A DNA stretch of 29,262 nt, taken from contig CBFDTI010000008.1 of NCBI GenBank assembly GCA_965612795.1, positions 1 to 29,262 of the forward strand, written 5' to 3'. Below the pieces are notes generated by a model that had not been told where the DNA came from, searched no databases, and saw only the letters and a list, made by a program, of their open reading frames with translations. Made by a program: the position numbers and the translations under genes. This document shows, one piece after another, positions 23,425 to 29,262 of this stretch; position 1 is the first letter of the stretch; every line of letters begins with the position of its first letter. Origin of the DNA: an uncultured bacterium. GTDB taxonomy: Bacteria > Hydrothermota > UBA3073 > NMUJ01.

Positions 23425-23896
23425 ATGCAATATCTAGTAAAAATTTTAAGGGGTCTTCTTATTTCCATAGTTTTAATTCCATGTATTTTTCAAATTTCTG
23501 CCCAAGAGAAGCATCAAACACCCATGGATCTTTTTACGGGTAAGTGGAGTGGAAATCTATGGTTTCAAGCAATGTGTTTTGGGAAAGGATACATCGTTGC
23601 ATACTTCGAAGCTAAAGTAAAGGGAATTGTAATCTTGAAGCGATTGCCTAAGAATTATATTTTAAAAGTAAGAACACCTCAAGCAGTATTGGCTTCTAAA
23701 GGGATTGAATTCCTAACAAAAGTCAACGGTGACACTATTATAACAGTCCTTGAGGGTGAAGTAGGGTTTTCTGACATAAACGGAAAAAATACCGTGGTTG
23801 CGAGAAAAAAATCAGACTTCTACATGCCAGCAAGGGGAATTACCCACCAACGCGGTGTCTATAAATTCGAACATTATACCAAAATGATAGGAATAA
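23425..23896 (+). pseudogene. Degraded exported FecR-domain protein (paralog 1): internal deletion, +1 frameshift, nonsense codons
   Basis: Signal peptide + QEKHQTPMDLFTGKW, then VRTPQAVLASKGIEF..TVLEGEV. Removing one A from the A7 run (23805-23811) gives KNQTSTCQQGELPTNAVSINSNIIPK**E*, which aligns with paralog 2 ENQKSVVNPGGLPSEPVSIDPNQILRWWE*. Confidence 0.8.
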
Positions 23897-23945
23897 AAGG
23901 CGAGGCGGCGACAAAGAAAGGAGGCTATTTTAGGATAGAGGAGCT

Positions 23946-24024
23946 CCTGTTGTATTTGGAGGTTTATTATGGGTGGGATAAACCTTCAAATGTGACAGGT
24001 AAAAATATGGGCGAAATCCACCCA
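23946..24024 (+). ncRNA. Candidate structured leader, copy 1: 23-bp stem with GGGTGG loop complementary to pre-SD CCACCC
   Basis: Arms 23946-23968 / 23977-23999 pair at all 23 positions if G-U is allowed. Loop ATGGGTGG; CCACCCA at 24018-24024. Confidence 0.6.
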
Positions 24025-24037
24025 AAAGGAGGATATA

Positions 24038-24538
24038 ATGAAGGGCAGCTTTGTAATAATGTTTGTAATGATAGTATGTGTTGCAGTTGTATTTTTAACT
24101 AACTGCGCAACGGTGGGGAAAAAGGTTCCAGCTCCTTTGGAGGAGGCGCTTACAGAACCCAAGGTCGAAGTGCTGGAAGTGAAGGTTGAAAAGGTAACTT
24201 GGATCTCGCAAGTATGGGGAGAAAAGGTTTATGGTGTTAATATAACGGGTAAGGCGGTATATCACCCAGCTAAGGTTGGGGGTAAGAGTTTCGTTGAAGC
24301 AACAAAAGGTAAAGAGTTTTATTTTGATTTCTACGATTCTCAAGGATTAAAGTTACCCCTTCAGGTAAGTTTTAACGCTCAAGAGGGTAAATGTGGGCCA
24401 AATGGTATGCCAGAAAATGTTGTGCCTGGAGAACCGTTTACATTCGAAAAAAGAGCAGGAATTGCGAGCGAGGATGAACCAGATAGAATAGCGCTTTGGG
24501 AAAGAATCGCTACTACTAAATTTGTGAAATGGGAATAA
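24038..24538 (+). CDS. Hypothetical lipoprotein (166 aa)
   Basis: SD AGGAGG at 24027-24032; hydrophobic signal peptide ending in lipobox-like LTN-C. Confidence 0.8.
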   Translation: MKGSFVIMFVMIVCVAVVFLTNCATVGKKVPAPLEEALTEPKVEVLEVKVEKVTWISQVWGEKVYGVNITGKAVYHPAKVGGKSFVEATKGKEFYFDFYDSQGLKLPLQVSFNAQEGKCGPNGMPENVVPGEPFTFEKRAGIASEDEPDRIALWERIATTKFVKWE

Positions 24539-24698: not shown

Positions 24699-25699
24699 AT
24701 GGAAAGATATTTAATATTACTTCTTCTGGTGATTTTAGAGGTTTCTCAAATCTTTGCACAGGACAAGCAGAAAATACCGAGAGGTTTTTTAAAGGAAAGT
24801 GGGGAGGGGTTATCTCTGGCAAAATAAAACTTGCACAGGAAAATGAAATCTTACCTTTTTATTTAGAACTAATTGGTAATACTGGTGATAGCACAGCGCA
24901 ATTAAAACTCAATGCAGTTCGTTTTGACTCAGATTTAAAAACTTGTGATTTAGTAAAAAAGCCTATTGTTGTTTTTGATTCTCAGGCTCCTTGTGGAATT
25001 TTTTCCAAGATTAGTCCACCAGTTTTTACTATTAATTTTTCGCAGGATTTTGGTAAACGTGTAGCTAAAGGTATGAAACTTGATCCTTGCGGTAATTATA
25101 CTGGGTTCAATACATTTGCTGCATATCAGCTTGCTTTTGTCACAGGGTTTGAAATGGAACCCAAAAATGAAAATCTTATAATTCTTAGTGATAGAGAGAA
25201 AACATTAGCATGGAAAGGAGGTAATGCAAGAGGCAAACTACACAGAATCTATGTAAGAAAAGATTCTTTAGGTAAAACCGTTCACGTAAATGAATTAATA
25301 AAGACTAATAAATTCACTCAACGGGAGATCGTTGTTCCAGATGTGGGAGAAGTTATTGTTAGACCAAATTCAGAGTGTAAGTTTTCTGACGAAGATGAAC
25401 TTAATCAAGCTTGGGGAGAAATTATGGAGAAAATAGAAAAACTCCCACCTGATTATGATTTTAAAGTTCGTTCTCCACAAGCCGTCTTAAGTGTTAGGGG
25501 AACGCAATTTATAACGAGGGTAGAAAAAGATGGCACTACAACTTTGACTGTTCTTGATGGTGAAGTTGAATTTTCAGACATACAAAAGAGAAAAACTGTA
25601 TTGGTGAAGGAAAATCAGAAGTCAGTTGTCAATCCTGGTGGATTGCCTTCTGAACCGGTATCCATCGACCCTAACCAGATTCTAAGATGGTGGGAATAA
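24699..25699 (+). pseudogene. Exported FecR-domain protein (paralog 2) with a 1-nt frameshift near 24778-24790
   Basis: SD GAGGAGGT, ATG 24699, signal peptide ...IFAQDKQKIP. The frame of the 25073 ORF is open from at least 24782 (FFKGKWGG...). C-terminal VRSPQAVLSVRGTQF..TVLDGEV FecR motif. About 333 aa if repaired. Confidence 0.82.
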
Positions 25700-25717
25700 G
25701 TGGCGATGTGGCGGCAA

Positions 25718-25796
25718 CCATATTACATCCGGGTTTTATTAAAGGGTGGGGTAAAACTGCTGGATGTGATATGGGAAATAACAAAAACACCACCCA
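25718..25796 (+). ncRNA. Candidate structured leader, copy 2
   Basis: Arms 25718-25740 / 25750-25774 give 23 pairs with a 2-nt bulge. Loop AAAGGGTGG; CCACCCA at 25790-25796; SD at 25799-25804. Confidence 0.6.
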
Positions 25797-25809
25797 AAAG
25801 GAGGTAATC

Positions 25810-26295
25810 ATGATGAAGCACAAAATCGCCGTAATGATGGTGGCACTTGTTGCAATCGCGGTGTTGGTAAGTAATGTAGGCGAACTAAAAGCACAAGTGC
25901 CTGGGCAGCTTTCCCCGGAACTTATGGAATTCGTATCCGAGTGGGGCGTATTATATTCCATGGCACCAGTTATTCCAGCATTACTTGACTATAACGACAT
26001 GCTTTACGAAGGTAAGAAAGTGACTGTTAATGAATGTGTCGAGTTTGACAAAGCAATTGGCACAATTGCCAGTGTGATGAAAAAGGCATGGGCTGGAATT
26101 AAAGATGCAACTATAAAGAAGGAGATGCAACTTCTGGCAGATGATTATATCAATGCGTCCAAACTATATGCAGACTACCATAAGACTGGTAAAGAAGAGT
26201 TTAAAAATAAGGCGGATGAACTGCTTGAGTCGGCAGATAAACATTGGGACAATGTAAATAAATACATAGAAGATAAGATAGGAGGAGAAAAGTAA
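25810..26295 (+). CDS. Hypothetical secreted alpha-helical protein (161 aa)
   Basis: SD AGGAGGT before ATG 25810 (preferred to 25687); signal peptide MMKHKIAVMMVALVAIAVLVSNVGELKA. Confidence 0.8.
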   Translation: MMKHKIAVMMVALVAIAVLVSNVGELKAQVPGQLSPELMEFVSEWGVLYSMAPVIPALLDYNDMLYEGKKVTVNECVEFDKAIGTIASVMKKAWAGIKDATIKKEMQLLADDYINASKLYADYHKTGKEEFKNKADELLESADKHWDNVNKYIEDKIGGEK

Positions 26296-26414: not shown

Positions 26415-28925
26415 ATGAAAAGGCTATTATTTGTTGTTATCTTTGCCTTCTTATTTGGTTTACCCATTCGGACATACGGACAATGGGCTACTGAGTTCGT
26501 GGATACGGTTGGAGATGTTGGATTCGCATGTGCTATTACAGTGGATGCAAATGGCTATCCTCATATCAGCTACAGGGATGGTAGCCGACGACTCAAGCAT
26601 GCCCACTGGGATGGTTCTTTATGGCAGATAGCATTCGTTGAAACTACTGACGGTGTCTCTTGGGTCACCTCTATTGCCCTTGACGGGCCTGGAAATCCCC
26701 ACATTGCCTTTGGCAAGAGAATTTTGTGTCCCCAACTCTGGCATGCCTGGTGGGATGGTGCTAACTGGCAACAGGAGGGGGTAGATTCTTTACCCTGGAA
26801 TGGGGATGTCGGCGAGTGGAATTCTATAGCATTTGATACAGACGGCTATCCCCATATTGCATACACATACTCCACCTATGGAGGAGTTTGTTATTTAAAG
26901 TATGCTTACAAAGATGCATCAGGCTGGCATACCCAGATTGTAGACAGTCTTGTGAATGATGTATATAAGTATATCTCCTTAGCATTGGATGGAAATAACA
27001 ATCCCCACATAAGTTACTATGATTGGAGCACCTGCGATTTAAAATATGCGCGGTTTGAATCTGGAACCGTGGATACACAATGGAGTAGAGTGTATGGAGG
27101 AAGTAGCGGGGATTGGCTTTATGGGATAGAGACTATGGATGATGGTGGATACATTACCTGTGGGTTTACATACTCTTTTGGGGCAGGGAATCAGGATTTA
27201 TGGATTCTTAAAATTGATGAAAACGGGGATACCTTATGGTCATACACTTACGGTGGTTGGGGAAATGACAGAACCTATGATGATTTGGAGAAGACAGATG
27301 ATGGGGGATATATAATAAATGGAACAACACATTCCTTTTCTCCTGATGGGACTCATGCTATGTGGCTTGTGAAACTTGATCCCACAGGTCAAATTGAATG
27401 GGACAACAGTTTTTCAACAGGTCAACCTTATGATTATGGTGAGAGTGGTGAGGCCATTCAAACATTTGATGGTGGCTATATTATAGCAGGTTCTTCCTTT
27501 TCCTGGGGTCATGCAACATCCGTAGGCTTTGTTGTTAAAACCGATTCTACTGGTAACGAGATATGGAGAAAAACATTCGGACTTCCTGATAGCCATACTC
27601 AACTCTTTGATGTAATCCAAGCACAGGATTCAGGGTACCTGTTTGTGGGACAAACCAACGCTTATGGTGCAGGTAACAATGATATGCTTATCTTGAAAAC
27701 AGACCATTTGGGAGATTCTGTATGGGCCAAAACTTACGGAGGAACAGAGCAAGACGGTGCAAGGGAGATATTGCCCACAGAGGATGGGAACTATTTAGTA
27801 ATAGGTTATACCCACTCTTTCGCACAGTACTCTTCTGCTATCTGGCTTTTGAAAATAAATCCCGATGGTGATACACTATGGTCAAGGATATACGATTACT
27901 GGTATTCAGCAGGTGTTAATGATATGGAGAATACCAGTGACTCCAATTACATAATAGTTGGCTCATGCATTCCTGACTCCTCAGATAGTGCCCATGTTCT
28001 GTTAGTCAAAATTACACCCAATGGTGATACATTATGGACGAAATATTCAGGTGGTGATGGCTTTCAAGCTTGGGGGTCATCAGTTGTTCAAACCATAGAT
28101 CAGGGGTACATTACTGTGGGTGGAAAAAGAAATTATGGAAGCACTGATGCAGATGGATATCTGCTCAAATTCAATTATACTCCGTCTTTCTGGCATATTG
28201 AGAGGGTGGATACTACAGGTGGTGTAGGTGCATATTCTTCTATTGCACTGGATAGTTTTGACTACCCTCACATAGCTTATATGGATGGCACCAATTACGC
28301 GGTTAAGTATGCAAGATGGGATGGTTCAGCTTGGCAGATTGAGACAGTTGAATCGGATATTGGATATGGATTTTATACCTCGCTTGCTCTTGATGCAAAT
28401 GACCGTCCACACATTAGCTCTGGTGAATATGCGGGCAGGCTAAGATTTGCCTGGTGGGATGGTTCGGATTGGCAAATTGAGGTTGTGGACAGTACCGTCT
28501 GCTGTGGCTGGACATCACTTGCTATTGATGATAGTGGTTATTGCCATATTGCTTACTATAATGGTGGGTTTGGGGATCTTAAATATGCCAAAAGAATCCC
28601 TACTACAAGTGTAGAAGAAAGGGAGGCTGCTTCCCATCCTATTCCGGGGATTCCTCAACTAGCACAGAATTATCCTAACCCGTTTAATTTTGCCACTTCT
28701 ATCCAATATATCCTCCCGAGGGGCGGATTTATACGACTCGCCATCTATAATATCTCAGGTCAACTTGTAAAGACACTAGTGCACGGTAAACAACTCGCTG
28801 GAAAGTATACCATCACTTGGAACGGAAAGGATAAGCAAGGTAGGAGCGTTAGCAGTGGGGTCTACTTTTACTGTTTAGAGATGGGTGATTTTAAGAGTAC
28901 AAGGAAGATGCTGTTATTGAGGTAA
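26415..28925 (+). CDS. Secreted double beta-propeller-like repeat protein with C-terminal FlgD-Ig/T9SS type A-like sorting domain
   Basis: Signal peptide; 7 repeats of SIALD..PHI.Y..LKYA.WDG and 7 repeats of DTLW...YGG..DGGY; C-terminal QNYPNPFN...IYNISGQLVKTL...WNGKD..G..VSSGVYFY. Confidence 0.9.
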   Translation: MKRLLFVVIFAFLFGLPIRTYGQWATEFVDTVGDVGFACAITVDANGYPHISYRDGSRRLKHAHWDGSLWQIAFVETTDGVSWVTSIALDGPGNPHIAFGKRILCPQLWHAWWDGANWQQEGVDSLPWNGDVGEWNSIAFDTDGYPHIAYTYSTYGGVCYLKYAYKDASGWHTQIVDSLVNDVYKYISLALDGNNNPHISYYDWSTCDLKYARFESGTVDTQWSRVYGGSSGDWLYGIETMDDGGYITCGFTYSFGAGNQDLWILKIDENGDTLWSYTYGGWGNDRTYDDLEKTDDGGYIINGTTHSFSPDGTHAMWLVKLDPTGQIEWDNSFSTGQPYDYGESGEAIQTFDGGYIIAGSSFSWGHATSVGFVVKTDSTGNEIWRKTFGLPDSHTQLFDVIQAQDSGYLFVGQTNAYGAGNNDMLILKTDHLGDSVWAKTYGGTEQDGAREILPTEDGNYLVIGYTHSFAQYSSAIWLLKINPDGDTLWSRIYDYWYSAGVNDMENTSDSNYIIVGSCIPDSSDSAHVLLVKITPNGDTLWTKYSGGDGFQAWGSSVVQTIDQGYITVGGKRNYGSTDADGYLLKFNYTPSFWHIERVDTTGGVGAYSSIALDSFDYPHIAYMDGTNYAVKYARWDGSAWQIETVESDIGYGFYTSLALDANDRPHISSGEYAGRLRFAWWDGSDWQIEVVDSTVCCGWTSLAIDDSGYCHIAYYNGGFGDLKYAKRIPTTSVEEREAASHPIPGIPQLAQNYPNPFNFATSIQYILPRGGFIRLAIYNISGQLVKTLVHGKQLAGKYTITWNGKDKQGRSVSSGVYFYCLEMGDFKSTRKMLLLR

Positions 28926-29144: not shown

Positions 29145-29262
29145 CCCTAACCAGATTCTAAGATGGTGGGAATAAGTGGAGATGCGGCGGCAACCATATT
29201 ACATCCGGGTTTTATTAAAGGGTGGGGTAAAACTGCTGGATGTGATATGGGAAATAACAAAA
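29145..29262 (+). repeat. Direct repeat of 25669-25786 (FecR gene tail + structured leader, copy 3), runs off the window
   Basis: 118 bp with 2 substitutions relative to 25669-25786. The hairpin at 29194-29250 is identical to copy 2. Confidence 0.95.

Follow-up and report, generated by a model that had tools for sequence, protein, structure and literature searches.

Why should the same long hairpin, with the same loop, stand directly in front of two unrelated genes for small exported proteins? This question is raised by a contig of 29,262 nucleotides (nt) from an uncultured bacterium of the phylum Hydrothermota (CBFDTI010000008.1, assembly GCA_965612795.1), which was analyzed over its whole length and is termed the window in the following. 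It represents one complete contig (C8) of the genome G000, which comprises 1.42 Mb in 128 contigs and is rated 99.5% complete. A first-pass annotation made from the sequence alone had proposed a cis-acting RNA at 23946..24037 and at two further places, in which a stem of 23 base pairs (bp) carries a loop that can form a pseudoknot next to the Shine-Dalgarno (SD) sequence. This observation as a whole is borne out, as both complete copies have the hairpin, a GGGUGG loop, and a CCACCC hexamer ahead of the SD sequence. The comparisons described below indicate that the hairpin is selected as an RNA fold of the sense strand, and the element most likely tunes the translation of the downstream exported-protein genes.

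Three copies in one stretch of the genome

Hairpin 1 (23946..23999, + strand) consists of a 5' arm (23946-23968) and a 3' arm (23977-23999) that pair at 23 of 23 positions, with 18 Watson-Crick and five G·U pairs, and of the loop AUGGGUGG (23969-23976), whose GGGTGG part, GGGUGG in the RNA, occupies 23971-23976. This hairpin alone is predicted to fold with -27 kcal/mol. It is followed on the same strand by an A-rich linker of 18 nt (24000..24017), by CCACCC (24018..24023), which is at the same time the putative pseudoknot partner and part of a segment resembling the anti-SD sequence, and by a region (24026..24040) with the SD sequence AAGGAGG (24026-24032) and the start codon ATG (24038-24040). 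Hairpin 2 (25718..25774, + strand) begins 19 nt past the stop codon of a gene for a FecR-domain protein, an arrangement that we term the short form. It has a 5' arm at 25718-25740, a loop at 25741-25749 with GGGUGG at 25744-25749, and a 3' arm at 25750-25774, which together form 23 pairs with a 2-nt bulge (25758-25759). The region downstream (25775..25812, + strand) contains a linker of 15 nt (25775-25789), CCACCC (25790-25795), AAGGAGG (25798-25804) and ATG (25810-25812). The pairing of both stems and the lengths of both A-rich linkers could therefore be reproduced as first annotated, and the two downstream proteins, which had been described as unrelated, indeed fall into different BLAST clusters and both have signal-peptide-like N-termini.

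The third copy (29145..29262, + strand) comprises the last 31 nt of a FecR-type gene, an upstream box that is described below, hairpin arms at 29194-29216 and 29226-29250, and GGGUGG at 29220-29225. A hairpin with its loop is thus present at 29194-29250, where a third instance had been annotated, but the region is a direct repeat of 25669-25786 with 98% identity, and copy 3 is therefore a recent duplicate of copy 2 and no independent example. The contig ends 12 nt past this hairpin, a CCACCC would lie beyond that end, and the match of the covariance model ends early at its 3' side. Copy 3 is preceded by an unrelated open reading frame (ORF) of 40 amino acids, and no other contig continues it; it looks as if the repeat has caused the assembly to break here, with a third regulated gene hidden behind the contig end.

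The sense-strand folds of copies 1 and 2 are better than those of 200 out of 200 dinucleotide shuffles (z -4.28 and -3.50), and GGGTGG followed by CCACCC at a distance of 30-55 nt occurs twice in the window, where 0.03 occurrences are expected. Neither BLAST nor a hairpin scan detected further copies in the 1.42-Mb genome, and all three copies lie within one stretch of 5.3 kb.

A rare and patchily distributed family

A blastn-type search of 40 relatives yielded one homologue, in genome G011, with a quite different stem sequence and an identical loop and CCACCCAAAAGGAG. A covariance model built from copy 1 and this homologue (R1) was run on 151 genomes of the phylum and gave full-length matches in G003, G011, G015, G019, G032, G062 and G114. 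The E-values of the covariance models built in this analysis are rough; six weaker R1 matches were inspected (L034-L036 and L038-L040, E 0.003-0.008) and rejected, as they had neither the loop nor the hairpin. Contig collections were scanned with patterns, and the matches were then filtered with the covariance model. Hairpins were found in at least 8 of at least 119 pattern matches in genome contigs, in 27 of 43 in metagenome contigs, and in none of five in viral contigs. The titles of the metagenome-assembled genomes (MAGs) behind the genome-contig members (at least eight) name WOR-3, Stahlbacteria, Neomarinimicrobiota and, in one case, an "uncultured bacterium"; new among the members listed are L086, L109 and L120, i.e. 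at least three. Outside G000, the layout occurs in seven other genomes of the phylum, in at least three further MAG contigs and in 27 metagenome contigs, and in total at least 39 matches give at least 30 distinct sequences.

The element is present in 5 of the 22 genomes of the window's own class. In three other classes, a second model (R2) matched 1 of 64, 1 of 19 and 1 of 26 genomes, which were only the already known G032, G062 and G114. A loop-agnostic pattern gave 19 matches in all 272 genomes of the phylum, and the members among them were those of G000 (two), G114 and G032, none of them new. Eight of the 272 genomes thus carry the element, with a single copy in each genome other than G000, and the distribution of the motif is rare and patchy. 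One occurrence (L030, G114:C32) is nearly identical to copy 2 including the end of the FecR gene, although its genome belongs to another class; its contig is 4.7 kb long, the bin is 75% complete, and either a horizontal transfer or a mis-binning of the contig would account for it.

In all 30 members, the element is followed by AGGAG(G/A) and then by the start codon of a protein of 58-238 amino acids with a signal peptide, a lipobox or a membrane anchor. Twenty of these proteins, including the one encoded at 24038, belong to one lipoprotein family, four to a second family that includes the product of the gene at 25810, four to a membrane-anchored family, and two are singletons.

The hairpin covaries as sense-strand RNA

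The sequences were aligned in 31 rows that were fitted to the model, using 29 of 38 member sources and leaving out nine exact-duplicate loci. Standard pairs occupy 94.8% of the cells in these 31 rows and 84.0% in shuffles, none of 500 shuffles matches the observed value on any of five measures, and when the partners are slid by one to three columns, only 33-54% of the cells pair, as compared to 93.8% for the hairpin. Both-sided changes are found at 16 of the 23 stem pairs, a covariation count that is inflated by related rows. RNAalifold returned the same hairpin from a plain, unfitted MAFFT alignment of ten long-form members, i.e. members with an additional SD-like sequence upstream (see below), with 13 of 25 pairs being compensatory.

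The strand that folds can be read from the non-standard pairs. Stem cells contain G·U 136 times versus A·C 16 times, and 65 versus 12 times among 16 representatives with less than 85% identity. This large excess of G·U over A·C means that the folded strand is the one carrying the downstream gene, i.e. the sense RNA, and the minus-strand folds of the copies are weaker than the sense folds. In the two window copies, it had been noticed that the stems have diverged and yet pair, and that their non-Watson-Crick pairs are G-T on the + strand; both features hold in the larger alignment, in which the stem sequence drifts and the hairpin pairing is kept. Apart from the putative pseudoknot helix, sequence conservation is found in the loop-proximal part of the stem (UUUAUU/GAUAAA) and at the 3' end of the linker.

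A loop predicted to pair beside the Shine-Dalgarno sequence

Does the loop indeed pair with the hexamer ahead of the SD sequence, as had been suggested? Nine complete copies, two in the window and the others in seven genomes, were found without any constraint on the loop, and all nine contain a complement to the six loop bases at six of six positions, which starts 12-19 nt past the stem. Complementary hexamers are thus present in the homologues of all seven loop-unconstrained genomes, and one of them is doubly compensatory: in G032, the loop is CGGUAG and the downstream hexamer CUACCG, which means that two positions have changed on both sides. The duplex of G032 has -7.2 kcal/mol, as compared to -2.8 kcal/mol for its loop on the consensus target. 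In four rows, the hexamer is CCACCU, which results in a G·U at the first pair of this helix. The patterns left free the nucleotides that precede GGGUGG and follow CCACCC, and these could form a seventh pair in 18 of 30 rows (U-A in 12, C-G in four and U·G in two), which is suggestive, although the rows are related.

The predicted geometry is that of an H-type pseudoknot, in which the stem of the hairpin (stem 1, S1), the helix between loop and hexamer (stem 2, S2) and three connecting loops (L1-L3) follow each other in the order S1-L1-S2-L2-S1'-L3-S2'. S1 has 20-24 pairs in 29 of 30 members, which is about two helical turns, and S2 has 6-7 bp. GGGUGG forms the 3' six bases of the loop and directly abuts the 3' arm; L1 is predicted to have 2-4 nt in 29 of 30 folds, and L2 is predicted to have a length of zero in 25 of 30. 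L3 is A-rich, has 12-25 nt across the 30 members and is probably long enough to span S1, and the conserved loop-proximal stem and the conserved end of L3 are the regions where L3 would lie in the minor groove of S1. The distance from CCACCC to the SD sequence is 2-9 nt. These predicted loop lengths fit a classical H-type pseudoknot, and S2 would therefore stack on S1.

The subfamily of copy 1 (24000-24023 in the window, and the metagenome loci L217 and L194) shows an additional feature. Its linker contains GGG(C/U)G, for which a local duplex with CCACCC is predicted to have -5.2 to -9.1 kcal/mol. In other subfamilies, such a third competitor for the hexamer was not seen.

A model of an activating pseudoknot that captures an anti-Shine-Dalgarno mimic

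The 3' end of the 16S rRNA of G000 is GGAUUACCUCCUUU, and the main SD sequences are near-perfect complements of it, with AAAGGAGGUAAUC in the case of copy 2. The A(U/A)ACCACC segment just upstream is a copy of the anti-SD sequence of the organism (UUACCUCC) except for one position, where A replaces U. Among the 30 members, 17 are predicted to form a CCACC/GGAGG mini-hairpin with -2 to -6 kcal/mol, and the duplex of the loop with CCACCC has -10.1 to -11.7 kcal/mol.

We favor, with moderate confidence, a model in which the element is a cis-acting mRNA leader or intercistronic element on the + strand that acts as translation activator or standby structure. If left free, the anti-SD-like CCACC could weakly pair with the SD sequence. 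The loop of the hairpin would capture CCACCC in a pairing that is far more stable than that of CCACC with the SD sequence, and S2 stacked on S1 would form a rod of about 30 bp that ends at the ribosome-binding site (RBS). The capture would free the SD sequence and present it beside a rigid helix, whereas an opening of the hairpin or an occupancy of the loop would lower translation. Candidates for agents that could switch translation down in this way are temperature, an RNA or protein, and upstream ribosomes that read through into the element.

Flanking sequences and the exchange of the 5' module

The conservation extends beyond the hairpin, upstream over a GGCGA..GGCGGCAA box and the end of the FecR gene, and downstream into the DNA encoding the signal peptide. 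In copy 1, the box reads GGCGAGGCGGCGACAAAG (23899..23916, + strand), a GGCGAWRYGGYGGCAA-like block, and in copy 2 it reads GGCGATGTGGCGGCAA (25702..25717, + strand); a GGCGAWRYGGYGGCAA box precedes most members. The long forms have in addition AAAGGAGGUGAU(G) about 25 nt ahead of the hairpin. This sequence has complementarity to about 12 nt at the 3' tail of the 16S rRNA, and in copy 1 it is represented by the SD-like AAAGGAGG (23917..23924, + strand). The AUG beside this sequence is too close for normal initiation, and upstream ORFs (uORFs) that start there are inconsistent. No pairing partner for the box was predicted in the leader or in the signal-peptide region. An apparent complement within the signal peptide of copy 2 was rejected, as it is not kept in copy 1.

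A comparison of L201 with copy 2 in 30-column bins (window 25470-26070) delimits the conserved unit. The FecR genes are 96-100% identical, the identity is 82-100%, mostly around 90%, through hairpin and signal peptide, and right after the signal peptide it drops to 26-43% in the mature proteins, which belong to different families. The 5' module is therefore exchanged among genes with different mature proteins. L209 represents the reverse case, with an identical downstream gene and a divergent 5' part of the FecR gene. Judged from these alignments, the locus of FecR-domain and lipoprotein genes is a mosaic. On this basis one may speculate, with low confidence, that a portable module exists, in which a regulated switch made of hairpin and anti-SD mimic is combined with a promoter-proximal box and a common signal peptide. 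The loop of such a module would be read by a trans-acting RNA, a protein or a physical signal, and recombination of the module among surface-lipoprotein genes would couple their variation to a common translational control.

Weighing the model and its alternatives

Several observations weigh against an activator or standby structure. The compensatory change in S2 comes from a single lineage, G032, and 20 of the 31 rows were found by patterns that demanded GGGTGG and CCACCY. As the patterns required both, the invariance of loop and CCACCY in these 20 rows is no evidence for pairing, and due to this ascertainment the true compensatory support for S2 amounts to one lineage. The alignment behind the covariation counts of the stem was fitted to the model. 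The mini-hairpin that would sequester the SD sequence is weak, contains an A·A mismatch and does not appear in the predicted folds of 13 of the 30 members, and the spacing between CCACCC and the SD sequence is variable, from 2 to 9 nt. The model does not explain why the upstream box and the signal-peptide DNA are conserved, and the rarity of the element in the phylum, with eight carriers among 272 genomes and mostly one copy in each, makes its selective value uncertain.

What alternatives exist for the proposed activating pseudoknot? The element could in principle stabilize the mRNA as a protective structure close to the 5' end of the downstream cistron, or it could be an endonuclease processing site at which the FecR and lipoprotein messages are separated, and its direct effect on initiation would be small. 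Such a role would agree with the stem length, which in 29 of 30 members stays close to two helical turns, with the frequent position between two co-directional genes, with the lack of a predicted sigma-70-like promoter directly upstream of copies 1 and 2, and with the presence of RNase Y in G000 (646 bits). We nevertheless regard it as unlikely, since a pure stabilizer could do without an invariant loop and without a hexamer next to the SD sequence that matches it, and since the pseudoknot would be lost once the stem is cut. In G000, with its rated completeness of 99.5%, neither RNase J nor RNase E/G was detected. For RNase III, G000 gave no match with TIGR02191 or PF14622, and G003, G019 and G032 gave none with PF14622, whereas PF14622 matched in G011 and G015. 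Three carriers with near-complete genomes (G000; G003, 97%; G032, 99%) thus gave no match for RNase III, the enzyme that cuts such stems, so that processing by it is disfavored and appears unlikely as a general role. An improbable possibility is that the pseudoknot is the sensor of a regulated switch, i.e. of a riboswitch or an RNA thermometer, or that an antisense RNA or a protein targets it by competing for its loop, comparable to Inc RNA and the repZ leader. An H-type pseudoknot with an A-rich L3 beside the SD sequence is also found in small pseudoknot riboswitches, the loop-proximal UUUAUU/GAUAAA and the 3' end of L3 are conserved in sequence, and the GGG(C/U)G in the linker of the copy-1 subfamily offers CCACCC an alternative partner. 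According to PMC8053102, the corresponding pseudoknot of IncI1 plasmids is blocked by an antisense RNA. However, there are few conserved unpaired nucleotides for a ligand pocket, no riboswitch of Rfam matched, and nothing that is known about the function of the downstream genes points to a ligand. The many G·U pairs would turn into A·C mismatches in an antisense hairpin, and no promoter-like site was placed for an antisense transcript across hairpins 1 or 2.

The exchange of modules described above brings up a role at the level of the DNA, in which the inverted repeat and its flanks would form a recombination module (an attC-like site, the end of a miniature inverted-repeat transposable element (MITE), or a homology block) that swaps exported-protein cassettes, the RNA fold being incidental. 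A conserved block that covers the FecR end and the hairpin, extends into the signal peptide and continues in unrelated mature domains would be in line with this, as would copy 3, a recent duplicate of 118 nt with the end of a gene only, and the near-identical element in the other-class genome G114. We consider it very unlikely that this is the whole explanation, because all 30 members have the element in a fixed orientation and at a fixed distance to SD sequence and start codon, the asymmetry of G·U over A·C is strong, and the loop covaries with the downstream hexamer. Integron attC sites and MITEs would be expected to have a nearby enzyme, many dispersed copies and no dependence on an RBS. 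Here, there are only one to three copies per genome, no integrase or transposase was found among the 16 ORFs of the window that were scanned (smaller ORFs lay outside the scan), none of the five pattern matches in viral contigs has a hairpin, and the arm ends do not resemble attC core sites. An open frame crosses the hairpin in several members, with a uORF whose stop overlaps the main ATG in G011 and L086, and with a frame that is continuous with the main ORF in L192, L204 and copy 2 (ORF 25687-26295), and the short-form hairpin begins as close as 19 nt past the FecR stop. Could the element thus simply encode a leader peptide or an N-terminal extension, or be a factor-independent terminator of the FecR gene? 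The distances from GGGTGG to CCACCC are 46, 47 and 48 nt, and as they cover all three phases, the frame is not conserved and a coding function is excluded; likewise, the starts, lengths and stops of the uORFs are inconsistent, and many members have no uORF at all. For a terminator, a G+C-rich stem would have to be followed by a U-tract, but the sequence that follows is A-rich, a terminator scan of the + strand makes no call, and several members have no nearby upstream co-directional gene, so that this pair of readings can be regarded as extremely improbable. Promoter and terminator scans gave nothing informative at the elements; one terminator-like site on the minus strand (24024-24008) is built on linker sequence that is specific for copy 1.

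Of the first-pass interpretation, which had listed a translational switch or enhancer, an RNase III or processing site and an mRNA stabilizer, the conserved sense-strand fold and the pairing of the loop with CCACCC stand, by covariation and by the nine of nine copies, and the RNase III option is weakened. Among the functions proposed, a translational enhancer or switch remains the best fit, and a stabilizer, a regulated switch or recombination at the DNA level may be rivals of it or act in addition.

Genes around the element

The first downstream gene (24038..24538, + strand) encodes a lipoprotein of 166 amino acids with the lipobox LTNC (family A), and the second (25810..26295, + strand) an exported protein of 161 amino acids (family B). 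The downstream proteins gave no match in Pfam or NCBIfam, and their Atlas matches did not exceed 0.90 and indicated no common family. Many members follow directly after a gene for a secreted FecR-domain protein that ends in WWE and has a conserved C-terminal end, as does the FecR-domain gene upstream of copy 2 (25073..25699, + strand; Pfam FecR, E 2e-10), which ends in ILRWWE before its stop codon. Other members have no FecR neighbor, and several have no nearby upstream co-directional gene.

The FecR-domain gene before copy 1 (23774-23896) looks degraded, as its C-terminal homology is in a different frame from the N-terminal part. Its end reads GELPTNAVSINSNIIPK followed by two stops, E and a final stop, as compared to GGLPSEPVSIDPNQILRWWE and stop in the gene before copy 2, and both Trp codons are thus replaced by stops (TGA and TAG). 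The close metagenome relatives L217 and L194 have an intact FecR gene end (TGGGAATAA), and L217 keeps both Trp codons. Either a pseudogene or an error in the assembly could account for this.

Between copies 2 and 3, at 26415-28925, a repeat-rich protein of 836 amino acids with a type IX secretion C-terminal sorting domain is encoded. The rest of the window is ordinary chromosome, with genes for methionyl-tRNA synthetase (MetRS), aldehyde ferredoxin oxidoreductase, a TonB-dependent receptor and others. The contig begins within the 3' end of a 23S rRNA gene (1-377), and no 5S rRNA was called in the window at the gathering scores of Rfam. At 1414-1510, an 18-nt tandem repeat encodes a Gly/Tyr/Pro-rich tract within a gene with a dinitrogenase FeMo-cofactor-binding domain and DUF5320.

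Relation to known systems

The layout had been recognized as that of no known RNA family, and the searches agree with this. In Rfam 15, the whole window matched at the gathering score only large-subunit rRNA (1-377), eight member loci matched only tRNAs, and with E up to 10 the region 23800-24100 gave three matches of 11.6-17 bits, as compared to gathering scores of 40-79; no family thus matched in the window at the element or at the eight member loci. Full-text literature searches found no account of such a motif.

In the repZ/repA leaders of IncI-alpha (ColIb-P9) and IncB (pMU720) plasmids, a stem-loop located upstream pairs through its loop with a short sequence on the 5' side of the RBS. 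The loop of the element described here is likewise predicted to pair with the sequence immediately 5' of the RBS of the downstream gene, and, by analogy, the repZ/repA leader is the closest known working principle. A pseudoknot in the leader is essential for the translation of RepZ in IncI1 and IncB/O plasmids and is blocked by an antisense RNA, as stated in PMC8053102. There are also differences. A uORF stop that overlaps the main start is found here only in G011 and L086, and there is no conserved leader-peptide ORF, as the uORFs elsewhere differ in frame and length or are absent. The element lies on chromosomal contigs, and the genes that it precedes are those of small lipoproteins, exported proteins or membrane proteins and not of a plasmid replication initiator. 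The stem has 20-24 bp, the linker only 12-25 nt, there is no sequence similarity, and no antisense RNA as in repZ/repA is indicated: no promoter-like site is placed for one, and the G·U pairs would weaken its hairpin.

The preQ1-I/II, SAM-II/V and fluoride riboswitches also have an H-type pseudoknot at the RBS with a short L1, nearly no L2 and an A-rich L3. In comparison to these small riboswitches, S1 is about four times longer here, the SD sequence lies outside S2, 2-9 nt downstream, few unpaired bases are conserved, and Rfam gave no match even with E up to 10. The operators of E. coli rpsO/S15 and T4 gene 32 are pseudoknots upstream of or overlapping the RBS, and they govern the binding of 30S subunits there. 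They are bound by the protein that they encode, and their sequences and sizes are unrelated to those of the element; an autoregulation of this kind is unlikely here because the products are exported proteins. The rpsO pseudoknot is the subject of PMC7038950. Hairpins cleaved by RNase III, such as those of the T7 R1.1 type or of the lambda N leader, resemble the element in having a stem of about two turns with small bulges that lies between cistrons, but they require no conserved loop or pseudoknot, and RNase III was not detected in three near-complete carriers.

An RBS-adjacent pseudoknot is therefore known as a general kind, and this RNA family is new. Its design is new in the two-turn S1, in the anti-SD mimic and in the association with a swapped signal-peptide module.

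Implications

To our knowledge, hardly any structured cis-regulatory RNAs have been described from uncultured candidate phyla. With a rarity of 8 in 272 genomes, the general importance of the element is limited, but it represents a well-supported new motif with a tertiary contact, the predicted pseudoknot, and its design is unusual in that a two-turn helix carries a loop that would capture an anti-SD look-alike beside a near-perfect SD sequence. The element is small, with about 95 nt, and modular, and it marks a mosaic locus of FecR-domain and lipoprotein genes. If the proposed mechanism is true, the activator-pseudoknot principle of the repZ type would extend beyond plasmid replication to chromosomal genes for exported proteins.

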